Of a DNA stretch of 8,265 nt, positions 1 through 8,265 are shown in pieces (the stretch's first letter is position 1; every line of letters begins with the position of its first letter). The translations under genes were made by a program, and so were the position numbers. Location: IMG/VR virus record IMGVR_UViG_3300044695_004155, positions 1 through 8,265 of that record; one strand, given 5' to 3'. Source of the DNA: a virus. The notes below the pieces were generated by a model. The model had not been told where the DNA came from and searched no databases. It was given only the letters and a program-made list of their open reading frames with translations.

Positions 1-14
1 TGAGCTACGTGTGA
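1..14 (-). tRNA. 5' end of a tRNA gene truncated by the window edge (identity unknown)
   Basis: The reverse complement of 1-14 reads TCACACG-TA-GCTCA. That is a 7-nt acceptor strand, U8-A9, then the canonical GCUC-A start of a D arm. The rest of the gene would lie left of the window. Confidence 0.4.
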
Positions 15-21
15 ATGATTG

Positions 22-94
22 TTGCGGAGGTGAGATTCGAACTCACGATCTTCGGGTTATGAGCCCGACGGGTTAGCCACTTCCCTACCCCGCG
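22..94 (-). tRNA. initiator tRNA-fMet (anticodon CAU)
   Basis: The reverse complement folds as CGCGGGG-TA-GGGA-AGTGGCTAA-CCC-G-TCGGG-CTCATAA-CCCGA-AGATC-GTGAG-TTCGAAT-CTCAC-CTCCGCA-A (73 nt, no encoded CCA). It has a C1xA72 mismatch and three consecutive G:C pairs closing the anticodon stem, both bacterial initiator hallmarks. The anticodon arm is identical to my recollection of E. coli tRNA-fMet. Confidence 0.85.
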
Positions 95-101
95 ATGTTT
101 G

Positions 102-175
102 TGCCGAAACGTGGAATCGAACCACGGACACGAGGATTTTCAGTCCTCTGCTACTACCAACTGAGCTATCTCGGC
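102..175 (-). tRNA. tRNA-Phe (anticodon GAA)
   Basis: The reverse complement folds as GCCGAGA-TA-GCTCAGTTGGTAGTAGC-A-GAGGA-CTGAAAA-TCCTC-GTGTC-CGTGG-TTCGATT-CCACG-TTTCGGC-A (74 nt). The acceptor has 7 bp including one G-U. The T loop, anticodon loop (C-U-GAA-A-A) and GTGTC variable loop are canonical and resemble bacterial tRNA-Phe. Confidence 0.85.
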
Positions 176-226
176 ATAAAATAAAGAAACCTACGTGTTA
201 CCTTATAGCACTACTGGCACCACAGA

Positions 227-252
227 GGTGCCGGGTGGGAATCGAACCCACC
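227..252 (-). pseudogene. orphan tRNA 3' module: T arm plus acceptor-like 3' strand with no 5' half of its own
   Basis: The reverse complement reads GTGGG-TTCGATT-CCCAC-CCGGCAC-C, a perfect T arm. It starts only about 17 nt after the 3' end of the Ala-like tRNA, so a separate cloverleaf does not fit. CCGGCAC can pair 6/7 with the GGGCCGG 5' acceptor strand at 335-341. It also forms a GC hairpin with 216-221 (GGCACC/GGTGCC). Confidence 0.4.
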
Positions 253-268
253 TATTCAGGTTTCATTG

Positions 269-341
269 TGGACCAGATGAGAATCGAACTCACCACAGGT
301 GCATTGCAAGTGCTCCTCGCCCCCTCGGAACATTCCGGCCC
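269..341 (-). tRNA. tRNA-Ala-like gene (anticodon UGC) with a non-canonical D arm
   Basis: The reverse complement reads GGGCCGG-AA-TGTTCCGAGGGGGCGA-G-GAGCA-CTTGCAA-TGCAC-CTGTG-GTGAG-TTCGATT-CTCAT-CTGGTCC-A (73 nt). G3:U70 and A73, the Ala identity set, are present, and the anticodon loop is a good C-U-UGC-A-A. However, U8 and A14 are replaced, the standard D stem does not pair, and there is an A-A mismatch in the anticodon stem. It may be a variant or a decaying tRNA. Confidence 0.55.
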
Positions 342-352
342 ATAAAGAATGT

Positions 353-868
353 TTATCCGTAGTAGAAATCTTTCCAAGAGTCACCCAAAATTTGAGATAT
401 TGTTTTCAAGTTTGAGGCATCAAGTTTTTTAGTGTGTAACATACGATGATGGTTAGGGCATACTATTGTCAAGTTTGAATGGTCGTCTGAACCGCCATTC
501 TTTCTCGGTATTATATGATGTATATCAGTTGTTGATTCACACCAACCACAAACAACACATGGTATATTCATTCGTCTTATTATTTTCTGTTGTGTTCTCG
601 TTGACAGTTCAAGTATTGAATTTGGTTCATCCTTTCTGAATTTACCACGTGTGGATTTTCCAACCGCCTTTGAATGACTAGTACCTCTTGAAAAGTTTGA
701 TTTGTTCATCTCATGTGCTCTTTTCAATGACACACTCAACTTTATCTTTTGTTCTTCAGACATTGGTGGTCTTTTTGCGTTATTGAATTTTGCCGCACAT
801 GATAGAGAACAAAATCTCTTTTGATGTTTTTTCGTCAACTCATGTTGACATTGCTCACAATGTTTCAT
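353..868 (-). CDS. HNH homing endonuclease (N-terminal Cys4 zinc finger, NUMOD3-like segment, C-terminal HNH nuclease)
   Basis: This is a 171-aa ORF. It carries the HNH core DIHHIIPRKNGGSDDHSNLTIVCPNHHRMLH preceded by CVVCGWC, and an N-terminal CEQC...CSLSC. A Shine-Dalgarno AAGGAG lies 5 nt upstream of the ATG (869-880 region). The gene sits inside a tRNA cluster. Confidence 0.9.
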   Translation of the reverse strand: MKHCEQCQHELTKKHQKRFCSLSCAAKFNNAKRPPMSEEQKIKLSVSLKRAHEMNKSNFSRGTSHSKAVGKSTRGKFRKDEPNSILELSTRTQQKIIRRMNIPCVVCGWCESTTDIHHIIPRKNGGSDDHSNLTIVCPNHHRMLHTKKLDASNLKTISQILGDSWKDFYYG

Positions 869-898
869 ACTGTCTCCTTATTCATGGTGTTTACTATA

Positions 899-927
899 AA
901 TATAGTTGACTGTAACGAAAATTACAA
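899..927 (-). promoter_or_regulatory. candidate sigma70-like promoter for the HNH gene (TTGTAA-N17-TATATT)
   Basis: On the minus strand, TTGTAA (927-922), a 17-nt spacer and TATATT (904-899) end 30 nt upstream of the HNH ATG. This is a pattern match only. Confidence 0.3.
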
Positions 928-934
928 ACAAGTG

Positions 935-1025
935 TGCCTCCATCTGGAATCGAACCAAGTCGCACAACCACCCGTCTTTATTGTATGTGCAACGGTTTTA
1001 CAGACCGCTGACGGGAAATGGAGGC
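935..1025 (-). tRNA. tRNA-Tyr-like gene (anticodon GUA), 91 nt, aberrant architecture
   Basis: The reverse complement reads GCCTCCA-TTTCCCGTCA-GCGGT-CTGTAAA-ACCGT-TGCACA-(19 nt)-TGTGCG-A-CTTGG-TTCGATT-CCAGA-TGGAGGC-A. It has a perfect 7-bp acceptor stem, a canonical T loop, a textbook anticodon loop C-U-GUA-A-A, A73 and a long extra arm as in bacterial tRNA-Tyr. Only 10 nt sit where the D arm should be. Confidence 0.55.
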
Positions 1026-1051
1026 ATGGCGTAATAAGTTTTCAATGAACG

Positions 1052-1067
1052 TCCTTCCGAAGAAGGA
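1052..1067 (-). other. 6-bp hairpin capped by a C(UUCG)G tetraloop on the minus-strand transcript
   Basis: In the minus sense it reads TCCTTC-TTCG-GAAGGA. It lies 26 nt upstream of the 5' end of the Tyr-like tRNA. cUUCGg is the classic hyper-stable tetraloop. Confidence 0.4.
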
Positions 1068-1096
1068 GACACAAACCTATGGAATTTTTCCGATAT

Positions 1097-1127
1097 ATCC
1101 AAATTAATTTTTTGTCATAATTTGGAT
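1097..1127. repeat. perfect 10-bp inverted repeat ATCCAAATTA / TAATTTGGAT with an 11-nt spacer
   Basis: Read directly: 1097-1106 is the exact reverse complement of 1118-1127. Confidence 0.7.
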
Positions 1128-1134
1128 TTTCACC

Positions 1135-1161
1135 GTAAGTCTTTGAAATCAAAGGACTTAC
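1135..1161. repeat. 10-bp inverted repeat GTAAGTCTTT / AAAGGACTTAC-type (one G-T/C-A position) with a 7-nt spacer
   Basis: 1135-1144 pairs with 1152-1161. The odd pair is G-U on a plus-strand RNA but C-A on a minus-strand RNA. It shares the GTAAGTCC/GGACTTAC half-site with the terminator at 1183-1214. Confidence 0.65.
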
Positions 1162-1172
1162 AAAGTTATCCA

Positions 1173-1214
1173 CATAAACAAAAAGGACTTACAAGTTTTA
1201 TCCTGTAAGTCCTT
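1173..1214 (-). terminator. rho-independent terminator after the 46-aa ORF
   Basis: In the minus sense it reads AAGGACTTAC-(12 nt)-GTAAGTCCTT, a perfect 10 bp, followed directly by TTTGTTTATG. Confidence 0.7.
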
Positions 1215-1236
1215 CTGAACTGGTGTGTCTTTTTGA

Positions 1237-1377
1237 TTAGGTCATAGACAACTTACAGGATTTTGATGTTGGGAGATACTCACTATTAAATGTGATACCA
1301 CAAAAAATGGCTCCTTTGCGAGTGACTTGTTGTGTCATCGCCGGATATGATTGCCATGTATGTAGTGAGTTGTTCAT
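1237..1377 (-). CDS. small hypothetical protein (46 aa), not in the supplied ORF track
   Basis: My own translation is MNNSLHTWQSYPAMTQQVTRKGAIFCGITFNSEYLPTSKSCKLSMT-stop. AGGACAGGAA lies 5 nt upstream of the ATG at 1375-1377. A promoter-like element lies upstream and a terminator downstream. There is no recognisable family. Confidence 0.45.
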   Translation of the reverse strand: MNNSLHTWQSYPAMTQQVTRKGAIFCGITFNSEYLPTSKSCKLSMT

Positions 1378-1434
1378 CGAATTTCCTGTCCTAAAAGTTA
1401 TGTCTAAATCCATTCTATATCAATAAGTATGTAC

Positions 1435-1463
1435 AATATACTAAAAAGATTCCACAATTCCAA
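1435..1463 (-). promoter_or_regulatory. candidate sigma70-like promoter (TTGGAA-N17-TATATT)
   Basis: On the minus strand, TTGGAA (1463-1458), a 17-nt spacer and TATATT (1440-1435) lie between the 1475 stop and the 46-aa ORF. Confidence 0.35.
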
Positions 1464-1474
1464 ATTTATTTTTC

Positions 1475-1774
1475 TTACCGAATAAAATTATCTACTTTAT
1501 CATACATCTTCTTTGTTTTCCAACCGTAGTTAAATACAAACCAACCTGCAACTTCCTTTGCAATATACTTTGGTTCACGGAATGTCTTTACATATTCGTC
1601 AATGAACCACTTTGTAAAATCAACATCTTCTTCAAGAGTCCATTCACGTTTAGTAAACCAATAAGGTTGTTGAGCGAACTCTTCGTCATATCCTTCAAAT
1701 CCAACACGACGGAACATTTCGTCAAGTGCTTTCATTTGAAATTCGTCAATTTTCTTTTGTTTTCTCGGTGTCAT
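1475..1774 (-). CDS. hypothetical protein (99 aa)
   Basis: The ORF-track entry 1475..1846 would start inside the terminator hairpin at 1834-1869. The internal ATG at 1772-1774 (MTPRKQKKIDEF...) lies downstream of a promoter-like element. I recognise no family. Confidence 0.7.
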   Translation of the reverse strand: MTPRKQKKIDEFQMKALDEMFRRVGFEGYDEEFAQQPYWFTKREWTLEEDVDFTKWFIDEYVKTFREPKYIAKEVAGWFVFNYGWKTKKMYDKVDNFIR

Positions 1775-1802
1775 TTTATTAACTTGTAATTGATTGAATA
1801 CA

Positions 1803-1831
1803 AGTATACGAAAAAAATCTGACATTTCCAA
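1803..1831 (-). promoter_or_regulatory. candidate sigma70-like promoter (TTGGAA-N17-TATACT)
   Basis: On the minus strand, TTGGAA (1831-1826), a 17-nt spacer and TATACT (1808-1803) follow immediately after the terminator T-tract and lie 28 nt upstream of the ATG at 1774. Confidence 0.45.
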
Positions 1832-1833
1832 AT

Positions 1834-1869
1834 AAAAAAGTCTCACACCAAGAAAATGTGAGACTTTTT
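1834..1869 (-). terminator. rho-independent terminator (symmetric A-tract / T-tract, could act in both directions)
   Basis: In the minus sense it reads AAAAAGTCTCACA-TTTTCTTGG-TGTGAGACTTTTT then TATTTGG. The core stem is 8 bp GC-containing and extends to 13 bp through the A/T tracts. It lies 20 nt after the stop at 1889. Confidence 0.8.
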
Positions 1870-1888
1870 GAACTGGTGTGTAATTTTC

Positions 1889-2236
1889 TTAAAGTGCCGA
1901 ATAAATAGCGGCGTATTCTTTCACATTGAATCTTTGTTTTGCCTTGGCTAACATCTCTGTCATCAATTCATTTTCATACTGTTGAATACCATAAGGCATA
2001 GTTCCAGCAATCTTTCTGATTTCAGCAGTGTGGTCAAGTATCTTTGAATACTTTTGTTCTGCTAGAAGTTTAGCGAGTTCAAATAAAGCCTCTGAACGAT
2101 TTGCCTTCTTTGTGGCTTCTCTCATTCTCTTTACAGAGTTTTCAACTTTTTGGCTAATCTTTTCTTCAGCTTCACGAAGTGATTGAAGTGTTTGAGATGC
2201 CTCGCTAAGTAATTGTTTTCTTGACGATAATTTCAT
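1889..2236 (-). CDS. hypothetical alpha-helical/coiled-coil-like protein (115 aa) with MKL...LLSE leader
   Basis: I chose the ATG at 2234-2236 (MKLSSRKQLLSEASQ...) because GGAG lies 7 nt upstream and the upstream gene stops at 2254. The longer track start at 2266 would overlap that gene. Confidence 0.75.
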   Translation of the reverse strand: MKLSSRKQLLSEASQTLQSLREAEEKISQKVENSVKRMREATKKANRSEALFELAKLLAEQKYSKILDHTAEIRKIAGTMPYGIQQYENELMTEMLAKAKQRFNVKEYAAIYSAL

Positions 2237-2253
2237 TTCATGCTCCGATTGTA

Positions 2254-2640
2254 TTAGTCCCACCAAATTCGGTATAGACCTGGTTCTACTTCATCAAGTT
2301 CATCCGCCTTCAAAGAAGCTTTACTTGGTTTTGTATTCGTCTTTACATAAAGACAAACACTATATTCACGACCAAGTTGAATCTTTGCATCTGCTGGTAA
2401 TTTGTCAATCAATTCAGCAGTGAATTCATTATAACCATCAGGAAGAGCTTGTTTCATAATGTTCATTGCATCTTTCTTACTGAACATTGTTGTGTCTTTC
2501 CACATCATGTTATTTCCATCATATTCCTTGGCAAACTTCTTTGGATCTTTACCAAAATTTACTTCCTTTACTGCCTCATTGATAGATTCAGTCAAAAGAC
2601 CAGCAAGTTTCATCATTCGTTGTTTATTCAGTTCCATCAT
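2254..2640 (-). CDS. hypothetical protein (start ambiguous) containing an MMKLAGLLTE leader
   Basis: The track ORF 2254..2649 begins at a TTG. ATG codons occur at 2640, 2637, 2616 and 2613. Starting at 2616 gives MMKLAGLLTESINE..., which matches the N-termini of the two downstream paralogous leaders (ATGATGAAACT vs ATGATAAAACT). There is no clear Shine-Dalgarno for any candidate start. Confidence 0.65.
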   Translation of the reverse strand: MMELNKQRMMKLAGLLTESINEAVKEVNFGKDPKKFAKEYDGNNMMWKDTTMFSKKDAMNIMKQALPDGYNEFTAELIDKLPADAKIQLGREYSVCLYVKTNTKPSKASLKADELDEVEPGLYRIWWD

Positions 2641-2668
2641 ATATTCCAAAAAATACTATGGTTATATT

Positions 2669-2896
2669 CTATAAATATGATTCAGGTTTTGTTTTCTTAC
2701 GGGAAAGTAAGAAATAAAATCCAAAAAATAACAGCGCAACCCCATAGAAGATAACGTCTGTAATCCAGTAGCTTCCTGTCAATTTCATCACGAAGGAAAA
2801 TGCTGCATCGAAGCCCAGTGGATTGAAGAATGTTCCTAAAACCAAACAAGTTTTTGCGAGGTTGTCTCGTAGTTTTTGTCTTTTTACTATTGCCAT
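2669..2896 (-). CDS. small membrane protein (75 aa, two predicted TM helices, basic C-terminal tail)
   Basis: There are two hydrophobic stretches (CLVLGTFFNPLGFDAAFSFV and WITDVIFYGVALLFFGFYFLL) and a charged tail SRKKTKPESYL. GGGAAG lies 5 nt upstream of the ATG at 2894-2896. I prefer it over the overlapping out-of-frame ORF 2697..2909. Confidence 0.7.
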   Translation of the reverse strand: MAIVKRQKLRDNLAKTCLVLGTFFNPLGFDAAFSFVMKLTGSYWITDVIFYGVALLFFGFYFLLSRKKTKPESYL

Positions 2897-3035
2897 CCGA
2901 ACTTCCCATGTATTTACCTTGTGGTGGGCAATCTGTTATTTAGTATAGAACTTTACATATTCAGTATATGTAGCGAATTCAACTGCAATCGTTATCGGGT
3001 TGGAGTATTTTTTACCAAAATGTAGAATTTCTTTT

Positions 3036-4034
3036 TCATCCATTCTCTTGTTCGGAGTTTTCCTTTGCCTTTTGGATAATGAACGGAATCATCTTATCCG
3101 GAGTGATTTTATTCTTACGACCTTCTTGATAAATACGAATCAAAATATCACGGGCAATAGACCCCATCTTTCTTTTTGCGTTATGTATCTCGGAATCTAT
3201 TACAGATTTAGCATCCATCCCTCCAAAAGTCAGTCTCATATTCCATAACTTACTTTCATATTCTTTCCAACCAGATTCTATGTAATCCTTATATGTTCCA
3301 TACTTCCCACGATCATCCGGTTCCATCTGTAACATTCTGCTGTTGAAATCTTTCTCAGCTGTTTGATTTGACATGAAGATAGTATTTAGTTCTTCCTTTG
3401 ATATACCGACGACTTGTGCGATATAAACCAACCTATCTAATCTTTCAGGATTAGGTGGCATGGAAACATATGGACTTTCATTCGGGTCAATTGGTTGTCT
3501 CAAAGAATCCGCTATTTCTTTTGTCACAAGTTCTCCGTCTCTACCCAATTGAAACTTCTTTTCATTTCTGAATAGAAAACATTGGATGTTTGCTTTTAGG
3601 CAGGCATCCATTACAGCCGTCAATTGAGTCATATTACTCCTGTATACAAAGGCATTTAGGAACAAGTCCACACGTTTGATGTAATTCTTTGCATTAGGAA
3701 TTGTTGGTTCATTGGAAAACAAACGGTCTTCGTATTCCGTACCTTGTGGTCCCATCTGCCAGTAATCTATCGCACCACCCTTATATCGTTGTGATAACTT
3801 TCTCCCGTCCAACTCAAGACGGCAATCATATGATTTACCATAACCACCCCACTTTTGGCGAGCGGTTGAAAGGTAGTATTGTTTATTACCACCAAACTTT
3901 GATATATCTGCACCACTCACTATGCTCAACTCAAACTTGTTTTGCTCTATTATCTTCTTAGCAGCTTGGGGTGATGTGAAGTGCCAGACTATATCTGATA
4001 GTGCCTCTGTTAATATGTGTTTTAGTTTTATCAT
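3036..4034 (-). CDS. 332-aa protein with MIKLKHILTE leader and a possible N-terminal ADP-ribosyltransferase-like domain
   Basis: It is a long uninterrupted ORF. The residues are VWH18FTS, QY53Y54LST, GGY65G and TE100YE102DRLF. Their order and spacing recall the His/Tyr/Tyr/Glu pattern of diphtheria-toxin/PARP-type ARTs. I do not recognise the C-terminal 200 aa. The first 8 codons lie inside the 59-bp repeat. Confidence 0.8.
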   Translation of the reverse strand: MIKLKHILTEALSDIVWHFTSPQAAKKIIEQNKFELSIVSGADISKFGGNKQYYLSTARQKWGGYGKSYDCRLELDGRKLSQRYKGGAIDYWQMGPQGTEYEDRLFSNEPTIPNAKNYIKRVDLFLNAFVYRSNMTQLTAVMDACLKANIQCFLFRNEKKFQLGRDGELVTKEIADSLRQPIDPNESPYVSMPPNPERLDRLVYIAQVVGISKEELNTIFMSNQTAEKDFNSRMLQMEPDDRGKYGTYKDYIESGWKEYESKLWNMRLTFGGMDAKSVIDSEIHNAKRKMGSIARDILIRIYQEGRKNKITPDKMIPFIIQKAKENSEQENG

Positions 4035-4069
4035 TACCTATAAATATGAAACTACGGGGAATATCGTCC
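4011..4069. repeat. 59-bp direct repeat, copy A (54/59 identical to 4783-4841)
   Basis: Aligned by hand without gaps. The mismatches are at 4019, 4023, 4053, 4059 and 4063. The copy covers the first 8 codons of the 332-aa gene plus 35 nt upstream. Confidence 0.9.
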
Positions 4070-4071
4070 GT

Positions 4072-4806
4072 CTATAAGTCATCATCGTCCGGTTCAATGT
4101 AGTTGGACAATCTGTTAGGCAATCTGTCCATAATGTTCTCCCAAAATAGTTCTGAACTTACCGCTATGAATACAGGTTTGGAATACTTTTTTCCAAAATG
4201 AAGTATTTCGTTTTCTTTTCCGTTACCACTGGTGAATGAAAACAAATAATTCATTACCTTTTGATTGAAAAAATACTCATCATTTTGTTCTGAAATAAGT
4301 ATACCATGGTCTCCAAATCTTTTAGATACATTTATATTAGACGTCCAACTTTGAACATCTCGGTGTGGTTTATACGATATTGGTTTATCATATCTATAAA
4401 ATACTTCTTTTCCGATTTTTAATTTAGTATAATCATTATAGTCAGATTTTTCTCTTAGAGGAGAAATAATATTCTTCGAAATATCTTGTAAACCTCGATA
4501 GACTTCTGTACCATTCGGGGTTTCTGGTTTAAATATAGATGGAAATTTAGTTTTTGCATTTTTCAACAAGTCTTTATTTTTATACAAATTGTTTGAAATA
4601 GTTCCATCAGGAGTGCGTACCCATTGTAATATGTATGACAATATCTGTTTTTCTATTTTCGTATTCTTTTCAGAACCAGTTTTTCCCTGTAACTTAACGA
4701 GTTTTTTAAAGAAATCATCTTGACTTATATCACCAAACACAATATCACCAAACGCCTTTTTCGGGTCTGTGTCTGTTTCAGATAATATGTCTTTGAGTTT
4801 TATCAT
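4072..4806 (-). CDS. candidate mono-ADP-ribosyltransferase of the R-S-E type (244 aa) with MIKLKDILSE leader
   Basis: The motifs are EVYR104G, QS153WT155S156N and GKE198NE200ILHF. They occur in the order and approximate spacing of ART regions 1-3 (aromatic-Arg, S-T-S, E-x-E followed by hydrophobics). The tail is acidic (EPDDDDL). The CDS call is firm but the product call rests on motifs only. Confidence 0.8.
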   Translation of the reverse strand: MIKLKDILSETDTDPKKAFGDIVFGDISQDDFFKKLVKLQGKTGSEKNTKIEKQILSYILQWVRTPDGTISNNLYKNKDLLKNAKTKFPSIFKPETPNGTEVYRGLQDISKNIISPLREKSDYNDYTKLKIGKEVFYRYDKPISYKPHRDVQSWTSNINVSKRFGDHGILISEQNDEYFFNQKVMNYLFSFTSGNGKENEILHFGKKYSKPVFIAVSSELFWENIMDRLPNRLSNYIEPDDDDL

Positions 4807-4841
4807 TACCTATAAATATGAAACGACGGGTAATTTCGTCC
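4783..4841. repeat. 59-bp direct repeat, copy B
   Basis: It is offset exactly 772 bp from copy A. It covers the first 8 codons of the 244-aa gene plus the last 10 codons and the stop of the 69-aa ORF. Confidence 0.9.
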
Positions 4842-5019
4842 AACCATCCATTTCAAAGATTTCCATAAACATCCCATAGTAATATACGAAACACGTACCA
4901 CCTGTGATAAAAACGTTGGAAATAAATATCTCATCTCCACGTCTAACAATAATCTTTTTATCCTTCAGATGTGTTGGTTGTGTTATCTTCGGATCTACCT
5001 CGTTCTCTAATCGCAACAT
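4810..5019 (-). CDS. hypothetical protein (69 aa)
   Basis: The ATG at 5017-5019 is preceded by AAGGGGGT with a 5-nt spacing. The stop TAG lies inside the 59-bp repeat, 3 nt before the next ATG. I recognise no family. Confidence 0.65.
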   Translation of the reverse strand: MLRLENEVDPKITQPTHLKDKKIIVRRGDEIFISNVFITGGTCFVYYYGMFMEIFEMDGWTKLPVVSYL

Positions 5020-5158
5020 TCGTTACCCCCTTTGTATGTTTTGGTTCATACGGGCAGTGAAGACATCCCGACCCGCAACAAAATGAACGGCAAAGGTGGT
5101 ACTCTTCTGTGAATACCACCTTCCCGTTTTCGTTTATGTAATAATCTTCCTCTTTCAT
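4958..5158 (-). CDS. DUF5522-like cysteine-rich small protein (66 aa)
   Basis: The segment YYINENGKVVFTEEYHLCRSFCCGSGCLHCPY matches my recollection of the DUF5522 signature (F-T-E-x-Y-H-L-x-R-G-x-C-C-G-x-G-C-x-H-C-P-Y). The low-complexity C-terminal 20 aa overlap the next gene by 62 nt. Confidence 0.65.
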   Translation of the reverse strand: MKEEDYYINENGKVVFTEEYHLCRSFCCGSGCLHCPYEPKHTKGVTNVAIRERGRSEDNTTNTSEG

Positions 5159-5163
5159 TTGAT

Positions 5164-5340
5164 TTACTTGGACTCTTTGCCTTCAGACACAGATGCCTTG
5201 TTGTAAGGTGTGATCAACTTCTTGATTGCACCTAACGCCTTACGAGCGTCTCCTGCACCTTTCTTGAACTTTGAATTGTGTCCGACGGTAAACTCATTGA
5301 ACAGATTTGTAATTTGTTCGTATAGTTCTTGCTTTGTCAT
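5164..5340 (-). CDS. histone H1/Hc1-like small basic DNA-binding protein (58 aa), not in the supplied ORF track
   Basis: My own translation is MTKQELYEQITNLFNEFTVGHNSKFKKGAGDARKALGAIKKLITPYNKASVSEGKESK-stop. A strong Shine-Dalgarno CAGGAGA lies 5 nt upstream of the ATG at 5338-5340. The K-G-x-x-A-G-x-A-R-K-A...K-K-L...Y-x-K-A-S layout resembles bacterial histone-H1-like (Hc1 family) proteins of about 60 aa. Confidence 0.65.
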   Translation of the reverse strand: MTKQELYEQITNLFNEFTVGHNSKFKKGAGDARKALGAIKKLITPYNKASVSEGKESK

Positions 5341-5357
5341 AACGTTCTCCTGTTTGT

Positions 5358-5385
5358 ATAATAGTCGGGATTAGTTCCCTGTTAA
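5358..5385 (-). promoter_or_regulatory. candidate sigma70-like promoter (TTAACA-N16-TATTAT) upstream of the H1-like gene
   Basis: On the minus strand, TTAACA (5385-5380), a 16-nt spacer and TATTAT (5363-5358) lie 17 nt upstream of the ATG. This is a pattern match only. Confidence 0.25.
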
Positions 5386-5397
5386 ATAAATAGATTA

Positions 5398-6216
5398 TTA
5401 CTTGATTTCACAAGAATATTTCCAAATGTAGCCACCACCTTGTTTATATTTCCCAATACAACACCCATATACACTATCCCTACCAACTTTCATAACTTCA
5501 GATGCCTCCTGAATGCTCTTGAATGTTTGTAAGAATTTACCATCTTTACTAAACATATCTATTGGTTTCATCTTACTTACTCCCATTTTTTTACGAACTT
5601 CACTCGGAATTACTTTACCTCTATTCTTTGCAGATATTTTTGCTCTCGTTTCAGGAGAATTTGGTTTTCCAAGATTGTGGGGTATAATTTTACCAGAAGC
5701 ATACAACTCTTTCATCTTTTTTGAATGTTCTGGTCTTGGTTTTCCTCTTCTATTTTCCGCATACATAAGATATTTTTCCGATGATTTCATAGATAAGGAC
5801 ATATTCTTTTTATACCCATCTGACCATTGTGTGCCTTTTCTACTTTTACTCATACGTGAACGTGTTTCCGTCGAATGTGACTTACCGTAAAACGGATTAT
5901 TTACACCACTCGCCATTTTACTCATTTTTTCTTTCCACTCATCTGTATGTTCTGCGCCAGTTCCTTTATTGTGCATATTGTAAAACGTTTCATTGTTACC
6001 TGCATCATAATAATTCAACCAGTATTCTTCCCGTTCTACCATTTGTTCAAATGATGAACATTCCTCAATAACTTCTTTCTTGAAGTTTTCTTTGCCGTAT
6101 TTACGGATTGCAAGCTTGAGTAAATGACCAGAACCAAGATAGTTTGGATTGTTTCTACTATCTCTACCGATATATTGCTTCCCGTTCACCAAATTTGTGG
6201 TCTTGTAGATAATCAT
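5398..6216 (-). CDS. GIY-YIG homing endonuclease with NUMOD3 repeats and a C-terminal helix-turn-helix (I-TevI / Seg-like)
   Basis: The N-terminal MIIYKTTNLVNGKQYIGRD...YWLNYY...N is a GIY-YIG catalytic domain. There are at least four S/T-x-E-x-R-x-K-[MI]-S type NUMOD3 repeats (HSTETRSRMSKSRKG, RPEHSKKMKE, SPETRAKISAKNRG, PSEVRKKMGVSK). The C-terminal FKSIQEASEVMKVGRDSVYGCCIGK...GYIWKY is an I-TevI-like DNA-binding module. GGGAGA lies 6 nt upstream of the ATG. Confidence 0.92.
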   Translation of the reverse strand: MIIYKTTNLVNGKQYIGRDSRNNPNYLGSGHLLKLAIRKYGKENFKKEVIEECSSFEQMVEREEYWLNYYDAGNNETFYNMHNKGTGAEHTDEWKEKMSKMASGVNNPFYGKSHSTETRSRMSKSRKGTQWSDGYKKNMSLSMKSSEKYLMYAENRRGKPRPEHSKKMKELYASGKIIPHNLGKPNSPETRAKISAKNRGKVIPSEVRKKMGVSKMKPIDMFSKDGKFLQTFKSIQEASEVMKVGRDSVYGCCIGKYKQGGGYIWKYSCEIK

Positions 6217-6241
6217 AGGAGTTCTCCCGATTGTTATTAGA

Positions 6242-6341
6242 TTAGTTTGTGTTCACTAATAAATATCGGATAAACAGAAAAGCCAGTTGTTTGGGAGATT
6301 GAGAAGTGGGTTGAACACAAACTAAACAATCACAACTGGCT
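6242..6341 (-). promoter_or_regulatory. two interleaved perfect inverted repeats (14 bp and 10 bp) in the reductase/endonuclease intergenic region
   Basis: S1 pairs 6281-6290 AGCCAGTTGT with 6332-6341 ACAACTGGCT. S2 pairs 6242-6255 TTAGTTTGTGTTCA with 6312-6325 TGAACACAAACTAA. On the minus transcript the 3' arm of S1 is followed by TTTCTGTTTAT, so S1 may act as a long-loop terminator. Confidence 0.5.
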
Positions 6342-6357
6342 CTTCAAATTCAACATA

Positions 6358-8214
6358 TCATACTATATCACATTTTCCGCCCGCGCAGGCCGCTTCTTGT
6401 GAGTGTTCCGTGTTATCATCCAACTCTACTATTTTTGACAAATCAACATCTTTTAGAGTTTCCATCAACTGATGATACTTTTCTTCCGTAATATCTTCGA
6501 ATGGGCTCTGGATGTAAGTATGGTCAGAGAATGGTAATACGGAAACTCCATTATATGAGTCACGATTTGTCCATAGCCATTGACCAACAGCTGGCCATTC
6601 ATTTTCACGAATACTTACGGTAGCCGAAATGTTGTGTGTGTTCATTCCATTCTTGTGACCTGGCTTTATCCAATTTTGGTTGAACCACTTTACGCGTTCA
6701 AGAAGTTGAAGTGGAGATTCTGTTCGCATAATCGCGTGGTCTGGTGCCTTTTGTGGGACACCGATAACTGCGGTATCGTGTGGACGGAAGTATTCATCTT
6801 CTACCAATTCAGGGTGGTTGATTGCAAGGTGAGTATAGATTGCCTCGTTCTTACCAACACGAACACGACGGAGGTAATAGTCATTGTGCCAAGCGTGAAT
6901 ACCAGATGAGCATCCTAATGTAAGAGATGATGTTCCAGCTGGCTTGATTGTTGTAATACGAGCAGCTTTATTGATACCGAGAATTCCAGCAACTCTTTCG
7001 TTCTCTTCCTTTGCAACTTTTGTTGCTGACTTTACATCCAACTTCTGAACAACACCTGAGCCAATACCAGTCATACCAACTCCAAGAAGACCGTCTTTCT
7101 CTGTTGTTCTTTGCCAGATTGGACGAAGATAGTGGAAGTCCGTATAACTTGCTTGAAGTGTTCCGATGAATGTTGCCGCACGAACTCGGTCTTCTAAATC
7201 CTGTTGGTCTACTACGTCTGAAACGTTTACTTCACAAAGATTACAGAATTGGAATGGACGTAGACCGATTTCACAACAAGGGTTTGTTCCCCAATCTTTA
7301 TCGTTTGAGAAGTAAATTCCAGGTTCACCTGCGTTTGAAAGTTCAATCTTCTTCCAAAGTCCCTTGAAGAATTCTTCTGTTACTTTACTACGAAGTAATA
7401 CCGCAGAGTTATTTGCCCGTCCACGTTGAGGATTCAATTCCCACCATGCACCAAATTTACACGAAATCATTTCATCATCATCGGCGGAGAATAGTGAGAT
7501 AAGAGCAGCACGACGAATACCACCAGCAAGAACTGCATCTGCAATATGACAAACCATATCGTGAACTTCGATAGGTGACAACTTGTCTCCATCTTTCTTT
7601 AGGTCAAGAATAGCACGAAGTTTCTCAACACAAATACGAAGTGGTTCTGAGCCAGGAGCTTTACCACCTGATGTGATAAGACGGGCACCCTTTGGACGGA
7701 TGTCTGAATAATCAAAACGAAGTGATGAACCGCTTGTGAAGTATGACTTTACAAGGGCTTTGATTGCGTCTGCCCAACCTTCGATTGAGTCTGACACAAG
7801 GAATCGTCTTTCACGGTCTGCCTTCGGTTTACGAATTTCAGGAAGTTTCTCGACGTGATGTTTCTGAACAGAATATCCAACACCTGTTCCACCGAGAAGA
7901 AGGAACATCACTTCACCAAAAGCACGCCAGTCATCAATAGGAAGATATGCACAGTTGTAAATACGATTCGGTGAAATTTCAATTGGCTTACCACCGAATT
8001 GAAGTGAACGCATTGAAGGAAGAACCTTCTTATCATAGACAAACTTATAGACATTTTCAATCTCGTCTTTTAGTTGTGGGTATTTCTTTTGGTGCATTTC
8101 CTTGTTTCGTGTCACCAACTCTTCCCAAGTTTCCCGACGATTGAGTTCAGGTATGAAACGAGAATACTTCATATAAACCGTAATATCCGAAAGGATTCGG
8201 TTGCTAATATCCAT
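6358..8214 (-). CDS. rtpR: adenosylcobalamin-dependent ribonucleoside-triphosphate reductase, monomeric class II (RTPR type)
   Basis: This is a 618-aa ORF with GGAG 6 nt upstream of the ATG. Blocks match my recollection of Lactobacillus leichmannii RTPR: DYSDIRPKGA...GGKAPGSEPL, VLAGGIRRAALISLFSADDDEM, GRANNSAV, NAGEPGIYF, the thiyl-radical loop GTNPCCEIGL...FCNLCEV, TTIKPAGTSS, and a C-terminal redox tail CAGGKCDIV (compare CEGGACPIK). There is no ATP cone. Confidence 0.93.
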   Translation of the reverse strand: MDISNRILSDITVYMKYSRFIPELNRRETWEELVTRNKEMHQKKYPQLKDEIENVYKFVYDKKVLPSMRSLQFGGKPIEISPNRIYNCAYLPIDDWRAFGEVMFLLLGGTGVGYSVQKHHVEKLPEIRKPKADRERRFLVSDSIEGWADAIKALVKSYFTSGSSLRFDYSDIRPKGARLITSGGKAPGSEPLRICVEKLRAILDLKKDGDKLSPIEVHDMVCHIADAVLAGGIRRAALISLFSADDDEMISCKFGAWWELNPQRGRANNSAVLLRSKVTEEFFKGLWKKIELSNAGEPGIYFSNDKDWGTNPCCEIGLRPFQFCNLCEVNVSDVVDQQDLEDRVRAATFIGTLQASYTDFHYLRPIWQRTTEKDGLLGVGMTGIGSGVVQKLDVKSATKVAKEENERVAGILGINKAARITTIKPAGTSSLTLGCSSGIHAWHNDYYLRRVRVGKNEAIYTHLAINHPELVEDEYFRPHDTAVIGVPQKAPDHAIMRTESPLQLLERVKWFNQNWIKPGHKNGMNTHNISATVSIRENEWPAVGQWLWTNRDSYNGVSVLPFSDHTYIQSPFEDITEEKYHQLMETLKDVDLSKIVELDDNTEHSQEAACAGGKCDIV

Positions 8215-8234
8215 AGTTGTCTCCGATTATTTTT

Positions 8235-8263
8235 TTTCTAAAAACGTTTATTTTTGATTCCAA
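8235..8263 (-). promoter_or_regulatory. weak candidate promoter upstream of the reductase gene (TTGGAA-N17-TAGAAA)
   Basis: On the minus strand, TTGGAA (8263-8258), a 17-nt spacer and TAGAAA (8240-8235) are present. It shares the TTTGGAA -35-like word with the candidates at 1831 and 1463. It sits at the window edge and has a poor -10. Confidence 0.2.
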
Positions 8264-8265
8264 AG

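Follow-up and report, generated by a model that had tools for sequence, protein, structure and literature searches.

Can a transfer RNA (tRNA) gene give up its D hairpin and still encode a working adaptor? The question is raised by a 91-nucleotide (nt) gene resembling tRNA-Tyr, with the anticodon GUA, in an 8,265-base fragment of an uncultured virus (IMG/VR record IMGVR_UViG_3300044695_004155, positions 1 to 8,265; this whole stretch is called the window below). Textbooks present all known bacterial tRNAs as cloverleaves. In the gene considered here, the place where a D arm is expected holds a short single strand, and the complement of that strand is found on the other side of the anticodon arm, in the loop of the extra (variable) arm. 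Our reading, which is built on sequence comparison, is that the gene probably encodes a functional tyrosine tRNA with a rewired, pseudoknotted core.

A first-pass annotation, made from the window alone, had recognized most of the parts, and they are indeed there (Table 1): the acceptor stem with seven of seven pairs, discriminator A73, the T loop, and the anticodon hairpin with GUA; the mere 10 nt in place of the D arm (UU, CCCGUC, and a single A), in which no hairpin is possible; and the extra arm of 6 base pairs (bp), whose 19-nt loop contains GACGGG, perfectly complementary to CCCGTC. Two points had to be amended, namely the strand, which is the minus strand, and the division of pairs between acceptor and T stem, which is 8/4 and not 7/5, as the seven pairs GCCUCCA/UGGAGGC are followed by an eighth, U8-A. 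The CCCGUC strand joins the anticodon stem through A1009 alone. Across the five helices there is no broken pair, and the extra-arm stem is among the longest in the family, where it measures 3-6 bp. Judged as a cloverleaf, the gene possesses the acceptor stem, a 7-nt anticodon loop (U33, purine at 37), and a TTCGA-type T loop; it lacks the D hairpin, and standard tools do not detect it above their curated thresholds. Two other readings of the same letters were discarded. An intron-containing or permuted tRNA gene is ruled out by both acceptor strands lying at the gene ends, with no splice motif needed, and folds that place the anticodon elsewhere depend on alternative stems made entirely of G-U pairs.

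Is the pairing between CCCGUC and GACGGG more than a coincidence? Within one sequence, stretches of 10 and 19 nt contain such a 6-nt match with a chance of a few percent, which is weakly unlikely. One sequence cannot tell, so the weight for the long-range helix has to come from relatives. A pattern scan of phage DNA, which required a Tyr anticodon loop, a long gap, and a T loop, yielded at least 64 distinct phage sequences with the acceptor stem exactly 10 nt before the anticodon stem; all counts out of 64 given here are among the matches listed, and no criterion in their selection used pairing between connector and loop. The helix forms with six of six pairs in 62/64 and with five of six in 2/64, using 30 different hexamers. 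Reading the hexamers backwards gives 16/64, and shuffled hexamers give 22%. On a MAFFT alignment of the family (A1), both sides have changed in each of the six pairs, and pairing holds in 99.2% of cells, so that the covariation of this helix is on par with that of the acceptor and anticodon stems. As a whole the structure is 97% paired; shuffles reach 69%, and sliding the partners gives no more than 57%.

Covariation is also seen in the extra-arm stem, for which the family has 31 distinct stem combinations. Because this stem covaries along with the long-range helix, both helices are predicted to coexist, and the core is then a pseudoknot. This bears on a choice left by the first-pass annotation, which had offered two alternative folds (a type II cloverleaf without a D arm, or a pseudoknot-like D helix made with the variable loop): covariation supports the second, and the either/or falls away. 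The same annotation had proposed looking for compensatory change in related phage loci, and this is what is seen in the CCCGTC/GACGGG and TGCACA/TGTGCG helices, without random decay. Its suggestion of a rearranged pseudogene can thus be dropped, the family being conserved and covarying and the gene not being broken.

The family also has features of its own that were not put in by the search. An eighth acceptor pair, to position 65, always forms (GC 45, UA 8, AU 6, UG 5), whereas the canonical 49:65 pair does so in 8/64 only; the family layout is therefore 8/4. G1-C72, A73, and the two G of the UGG that follows the hexamer are invariant in alignment A1, and none of them was part of the search pattern. 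Most phage copies encode CCA. We built a covariance model of the family (R1) and ran it on approximately 0.9 Mb of tRNA-rich phage DNA. It gave 66 matches of at least 71.9 bits and none between 33 and 71.9, with ordinary tRNAs reaching at most 33 bits; the window gene scores 75.7 bits, partly by construction as it is among the 64 training sequences. One of the matches, L039, carries a different T loop, and the class is therefore not defined by the search pattern. When the anticodon was left free, the scan returned 61 distinct sequences with the rewired layout, of which 59 carry GUA (loops CTGTAAA in 43 and CTGTAAC in 16) and two UCU, pointing to strong selection on the anticodon. The window gene has every feature by which the family is recognized: the R1 score, the 6-bp helix with UGG, the 8/4 layout, the enclosing extra-arm stem, and GUA, G1-C72, and A73. 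By these comparisons it belongs to a conserved, discrete family with a pseudoknotted core.

How could such a molecule work as a tRNA? In canonical numbering, the CCCGUC strand, one nucleotide from the anticodon stem, would take the role of positions 22-25, followed by 26 and 27, and the GACGGG strand with its UGG would take that of positions 10-13 running on to G18 and G19. Since the strand positions correspond in this way, the long-range helix could stack with normal polarity onto the anticodon stem and bring the GG to the elbow, where the T loop would meet it; the result would be an L shape. The net effect would be that segment 10-19 is shifted from before to behind the anticodon arm. With 8 bp in the acceptor and 4 bp in the T stem, the usual total of 12 bp is preserved, and the 8/4 split would move the exit of the chain one pair towards the elbow, from where the 2-nt UU link could reach the top of the helix, the normal place of U8. 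Elongation factor Tu (EF-Tu) would still find its 12-bp acceptor/T helix, and tyrosyl-tRNA synthetase (TyrRS) would find A73, G1-C72, G34, U35, and a paired extra arm. The RNA would be cut out of the phage tRNA transcript, receive CCA from a host enzyme, be charged with tyrosine by the host TyrRS, and read UAU and UAC. Charging and decoding of this kind receive indirect support from the identity nucleotides, from the filling of vacant Tyr slots in phage tRNA sets, and from an isogenic swap, the latter two described below. As a precedent, translation in Escherichia coli accepts a tRNA without a D arm as it is (PMC11551756).

The swap comes to light in a sister contig, L324, which was found among the relatives linked through ribonucleotide reductase and was the only one of them to prove informative, through ARAGORN. 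Window 1023-5392 and L324 11104-6735 differ by one mismatch in 4,370 nt (99.977% identity). At 11102-11186, L324 carries a canonical 85-nt tRNA-Tyr, which begins at the same nucleotide as the rewired gene and has the identical leader upstream. The tRNA order in L324 is canonical Tyr-Ala-Phe-Met; the window has instead a stretch of approximately 850 nt with the rewired tRNA-Tyr, an HNH gene, a variant of tRNA-Ala(UGC), a permuted tRNA-like module, and a tRNA-Phe whose anticodon arm differs, and identity resumes within the T arm of tRNA-Phe. Read from the two sequences, the difference is a cassette swap of the homing-endonuclease kind, and the rewired gene stands in for the canonical tRNA-Tyr behind the same leader. 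As that leader is identical, signals for transcription and 5' processing should be unchanged. The rewired gene would have arrived in this phage within an HNH-endonuclease cassette that overwrote the canonical tRNA-Tyr. CCA is not encoded in the rewired gene, nor in any other tRNA gene of the window or L324, and its absence from the window copy is for this reason not a defect.

Table 1. Positions of the rewired tRNA-Tyr gene, its parts, and associated features in the window
Feature	Position	Strand	Remark
Whole rewired tRNA-Tyr(GUA) gene, 91 nt	935..1025	(-)	G1 at 1025, discriminator A73 at 935
Acceptor stem, 5' strand, 8 nt (GCCUCCAU)	1018..1025	(-)	8/8 pairs with 943-936
UU connector, acceptor to long-range helix	1016..1017	(-)	TT in 47/64 family members among the matches listed
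Long-range D-like helix, 5' strand CCCGUC	1010..1015	(-)	6/6 pairs with 976-971
Anticodon arm GCGGU/ACCGU, loop CUGUAAA	992..1008	(-)	Anticodon GUA at 1001-999
Extra (variable) arm stem, 5' strand UGCACA	986..991	(-)	6/6 pairs with 966-961
A/U-rich linker in extra-arm loop (UACAAUAAA)	977..985	(-)	Family linkers 5-9 nt, A/T-rich
Long-range D-like helix, 3' strand GACGGG, in extra-arm loop	971..976	(-)	Exact complement of CCCGUC
UGG, then U	967..970	(-)	TGG after the hexamer in 61/64 among the matches listed
Extra-arm stem, 3' strand UGUGCG	961..966	(-)	6 bp; 19-nt loop between the strands
T arm, 4-bp stem UUGG/CCAG, loop UUCGAUU	944..958	(-)	From sequence and family pairing
Acceptor stem, 3' strand (AUGGAGGC)	936..943	(-)	Pairing with 1018-1025
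HNH homing-endonuclease gene, 171 amino acids	353..868	(-)	Pfam HNH, E = 1.2e-8; PHROG HNH endonuclease
Cassette differing from L324, ~850 nt	178..1026	(-)	Flanks identical
tRNA-Phe	101-175		ARAGORN
tRNA-Met	21-94		ARAGORN

Where else does the family occur, and does it fill a need there? ARAGORN calls the rewired gene in 0/46 loci, and in 14/17 clusters of at least 15 tRNAs it finds no canonical tRNA-Tyr. Three large phage sets, L031 (37 tRNAs), L113 (34), and L089 (26), each cover 19 amino acids by ARAGORN with Tyr as the sole gap, and in each of them the rewired gene is the only Tyr candidate. Outside phages, a scan of bacteria sampled at one genome per prokaryote species gave 53 pattern matches, and 52 of these have the full rewired layout; the majority belong to Planctomycetota, including the complete chromosome of Lacipirellula limnantheis. 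The bacterial copies often sit inside arrays of 20-36 tRNA genes (loci inspected), and the order Asp, Leu(CAA), variant, Glu(CUC) recurs in 5/12 bacterial loci. A possible role as the sole cellular tRNA-Tyr of Planctomycetota is ruled out, given a canonical copy in 6/6 genomes checked. From this distribution, the rewired variant is an auxiliary gene of arrays and phages.

Some observations on the arrays and clusters themselves deserve mention. Six planctomycetal loci (L157, which is the L. limnantheis chromosome, L125, L144, L154, L172, and L162) hold arrays of 19-36 tRNA genes within 8 kb, five of the six with a common gene order, and by ARAGORN the L125 array covers 19 amino acids and lacks Tyr alone. 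In many of the phage clusters, ARAGORN reports genes for tRNA-Ile(TAT) that measure 90-96 nt, a length well beyond that of a class I tRNA (L089:7368-7458, L091:11550-11642, L100:4389-4480, L031:5078-5169, L055:3932-4023, L059:3434-3529, and others), and further over-long calls of 85-90 nt concern Trp, Gln, Lys, Glu, Met, and Asn. Permuted genes resembling transfer-messenger RNA, with tag peptides, are likewise called in phage tRNA regions (L089:11753-12256, L037:307-783, L068:4076-4467, and L085:7387-7805).

Divergent relatives extend the picture. Bacteroides phage crAss001 has a member (MH675552:4141-4235) in an unannotated gap between tRNA-Lys and tRNA-Phe, with a 7/5 split, a 5-bp helix, and 33.8 bits with R1. 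A sister class of rewired tRNA-Arg(UCU) shows the long-range helix with six of six pairs in about 20 distinct sequences (e.g., L206:7328-7411, L256:5650-5730, and L311:6394-6478, plus some 20 more loci), and these genes reach 36-65 bits under the Tyr model. In L304, two rewired genes are adjacent, at 6421-6504 and 6509-6592. Similarity searches against isolated phages returned no match for either the whole window (near mode) or the element (distant mode), and for two other family members they gave nothing or one weak match to a Rhizobium phage. An exact 28-nt search of viral contigs found no second copy of the window's own gene. There is no family member in Microcystis phage Mel-JY01, the closest isolate by ribonucleotide reductase (69% amino acid identity), and no R1 match among 80 relatives linked through that enzyme.

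Several points weigh against a functional tyrosine tRNA. The T stem of the window gene has just 4 bp, one of them U-G, and the minimum-energy fold of the single sequence is not tRNA-like. The first-pass annotation had called the layout non-standard. ARAGORN makes no call on the gene; its best Rfam match, tRNA-Sec (935-1026, minus strand), has 29.2 bits where the threshold is 47, and with RF00005 it scores even less. Canonical class II tRNA-Tyr is found elsewhere in 6/6 Planctomycetota genomes tested, and the phage loci L103, L107, L043, and L057 also hold a canonical tRNA-Tyr; the variant is consequently not needed for decoding in those genomes and loci, where a special role is possible. Phage tRNA genes are, moreover, often dispensable, and a shared slot does not prove equal function. 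Finally, the L-shape model, like the anti-nuclease rationale taken up below, is a reasoned proposal.

The coexistence with canonical tRNA-Tyr gives room to the main rival, a tRNA mimic that folds as described and acts as a decoy or sponge for tRNA-Tyr nucleases, TyrRS, or another tRNA-binding factor, delivering no tyrosine. It gains further from the company of the gene, since the same cassette holds a permuted tRNA-like module that is unable to be an adaptor. Nevertheless, we regard a non-translating mimic as unlikely. A decoy needs no strict GUA loop, A73, G1-C72, 12-bp acceptor/T helix, or the CCA that is mostly encoded in phage copies; in three large tRNA sets the rewired gene is the sole Tyr candidate; and in the window the canonical tRNA-Tyr of the sister phage has been replaced, not joined. 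Of the roles suggested by the first-pass annotation, a functional structural variant thus fits best, ahead of a decoy or regulatory RNA, given the conserved G1-C72, A73, and UGG, the GUA in 59/61, the filling of the empty Tyr slot, and the replacement of a canonical tRNA-Tyr.

The sharp borders of the swap, which lie inside tRNA genes between perfectly identical flanks, and the HNH gene within the swapped block suggest a different story, in which HNH spreads by cutting canonical tRNA genes of sister phages and the odd allele is kept mainly as cut-immune DNA, with little or no function here. In such a selfish homing cassette the rewired gene would be a passenger. It suits this idea that a GIY-YIG endonuclease of the window, missing from L324, adjoins a stretch of lower identity, and that SegB-type endonucleases act in phage tRNA regions (PMC13096335). 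It does not suit it that the fold is kept with compensatory change in phages and in bacterial arrays that have no related HNH nearby, nor that the window copy has no broken pair in five helices and an R1 score far above the gap. A homologue of the HNH gene adjoins the tRNA in just 1/63 family loci (L103), and a general link of HNH to the family was dropped on that count. We consider a mere passenger quite improbable. Least probable of all, in our judgement, is a cloverleaf without a D arm and without a stable pseudoknot, comparable to mitochondrial tRNA-Ser(AGY) or mini HisT, with the hexamer pairing as a folding intermediate or on/off state; D-arm-less tRNAs can function (PMC11551756) and the two helices do share a loop of just 19 nt, but both show covariation in the same sequences, at the rates seen for the acceptor and anticodon stems, and the invariant UGG after the hexamer is understandable only with the helix there to position it.

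If the gene does encode a functional, rewired tyrosine tRNA, why would a phage prefer it to an ordinary one? Phages are stopped by Septu and retron-Eco7 (PtuAB), which cleave tRNA-Tyr in its variable arm (PMC11555353, PMC13096335). T5 tRNA-Tyr is stated to owe its resistance to a distinctive variable loop (PMC13096335); the escape of T6 comes from amplification of its own tRNA-Tyr, aided by the SegB endonuclease (PMC11555353, PMC13096335). The rewired tRNA has, in place of the small variable hairpin loop, a loop of 16-19 nt, and locking this loop into the core might protect it from nucleases that cut the variable arm, such as those of Septu and retron-Eco7 PtuAB. We put this forward as a tentative rationale, with the balance leaning against it; taken alone, it leaves the rewired Arg class unexplained. 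The fuller scenario, a translationally active pseudoknot-core tRNA, used by phages and mobile tRNA arrays, that hides both its variable arm and its D region from nucleases and is spread by homing cassettes overwriting canonical tRNA-Tyr, is somewhat more doubtful.

The surroundings of the gene are those of a small tRNA cluster. All genes of the window lie on the minus strand, and they comprise a class II ribonucleotide reductase, GIY-YIG and HNH homing endonucleases, and the tRNA cluster, in which tRNA-Met and tRNA-Phe are the only calls by ARAGORN. The HNH gene starts 66 nt downstream of the rewired tRNA-Tyr and is missing from L324; a search for relatives of its protein gave weak, partial matches only. 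The second endonuclease, of the GIY-YIG/NUMOD3 type (5398-6216, minus strand), is situated just downstream of the ribonucleotide reductase gene (6358-8214) and is likewise missing from L324. The reductase gene beside it has 82% DNA identity to L324, versus 99.98% across the next 4.4 kb, and the junction has the look of another mosaic border linked to an endonuclease. A terminator-like hairpin of 15 bp (1181-1216, minus strand) is found upstream of the tRNA cluster, and a second hairpin, in the 60 nt that follow downstream, uses the motif GTAAGTCC again; the two hairpins are identical in L324.

Two further tRNA-like elements share the cassette. The first is a 73-nt gene resembling tRNA-Ala(UGC) (269-341, minus strand), which was missed by ARAGORN and Rfam. 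It fits canonical numbering, with the anticodon at 34-36, G3-U70, A73, and a good T arm, and its defects are a D stem with two of four pairs and an A-A mismatch at 28-42. Homologues with the same odd D region occur in L286 (88% identity), L214, and L067, and the L067 copy is called tRNA-Ala by ARAGORN. The second is the permuted tRNA-like module (186-264, minus strand). It is closed by a stem of 8 bp, in which 264-257 pairs with 193-186. Inside this stem are a T-arm hairpin, an acceptor-like stem capped by a 5-nt loop, and a D-arm-like hairpin; an anticodon loop is missing. Folding gives -33.5 kcal/mol (z = -3.79), an energy matched by 0/200 shuffles. Rfam gives a weak match to YrlA (Y RNA-like; 19-21 bits, threshold 69). 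By eye, this module, which lies within the swapped cassette, has two halves that look like the 3' half and the 5' half of tRNA-Ala in L324.

If the proposed reading holds, a conserved and covarying non-cloverleaf tRNA of phages and bacterial tRNA arrays would, mitochondria aside, be the first exception found in nature. Standard annotation would then under-count phage tRNA sets, three of which are now read as serving 19 amino acids, all but Tyr. For tRNA engineers, the fold would offer a new scaffold, possibly orthogonal or nuclease-resistant, and it ties in with the current question of how phages escape defences that cut tRNA. The specific contribution of the window, which is new here, is that together with L324 it provides a natural isogenic pair of canonical and rewired tRNA-Tyr.

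How does the rewired gene compare with what is already described? Its closest counterpart is the canonical class II tRNA-Tyr(GUA) (RF00005; L324:11102-11186), with which it shares the CUGUAAA loop, G1-C72, A73, a standard T loop, a paired extra arm right after the anticodon stem, and the position in a tRNA operon, including the identical 5' leader in L324. It differs in having no D hairpin, as the D-stem strand and GG come after the anticodon arm, in the extra-arm loop; in its 8/4 instead of 7/5 layout; in a predicted pseudoknot core that cannot be drawn as a cloverleaf; and in being missed by tRNA finders. With the 8/4 and 9/3 tRNAs (allo-tRNAs and 8/4 tRNA-Ser and tRNA-His of bacteria and phages; PMC5389517), it has in common the 8/4 layout, the 12-bp branch, the occurrence in phage tRNA clusters, and a long extra arm. 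Mukai et al. (2017) present their tRNAs as cloverleaf structures and report Ser, His, Cys, and Sec types, and a term search of the paper gave no 8/4 tRNA-Tyr, no pseudoknot, and no D-armless form (PMC5389517). Against that group, the rewired gene stands out by its lack of a D hairpin and by a GUA anticodon in place of a Ser-type identity.

The absence of a D hairpin between acceptor and anticodon stems is, on the other hand, what the gene shares with mitochondrial tRNA-Ser(AGY) and the lab-made mini HisT of Edelmann et al. 2024 (PMC11551756). That paper, which states that all known bacterial tRNAs are cloverleaves, indicates that D-arm-less RNAs can be used by synthetases, EF-Tu, and ribosomes (PMC11551756). 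Those molecules simply lack the D arm and adopt a Y shape with no D/T contact (PMC11551756), whereas the rewired gene appears to keep a D helix and GG, built from distant strands, and has a canonical T loop. To tRNA-Sec (RF01852) it is similar in its long acceptor stem, long extra arm, and 6-bp D-type helix. A tRNA-Sec identity was nonetheless rejected, as the score stays below threshold (29.2 versus 47 bits) and the anticodon is GUA instead of UCA; in the alignment, 6 nt stand where the model has a D hairpin of 16 nt. The tRNA-Tyr of phages T5 and T6 resembles it in being phage-encoded, in the contested variable arm, and in a homing endonuclease gene beside the tRNA genes (PMC11555353, PMC13096335). 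Both are treated as ordinary tRNA-Tyr with a variable loop, protected through loop sequence or high dosage (PMC11555353, PMC13096335).

Among recent work, a 2026 paper on mycobacterial tRNA arrays reports array variants of tRNA-Tyr with differences in the D, anticodon, and variable arms; the section consulted does not describe the rewired fold. A survey of structured RNAs in IMG/VR gives tRNA-like candidates, without describing this fold, and literature searches, full text included, found no description of it. A further parallel is the rewired phage tRNA-Arg(UCU) mentioned above, which has the same succession of a 2-nt connector, a 6-nt strand, the anticodon arm, a complementary hexamer followed by UGG, and the T arm, and which differs from the tyrosine family in its UCU anticodon, a much shorter extra arm, and other acceptor sequences and discriminator.

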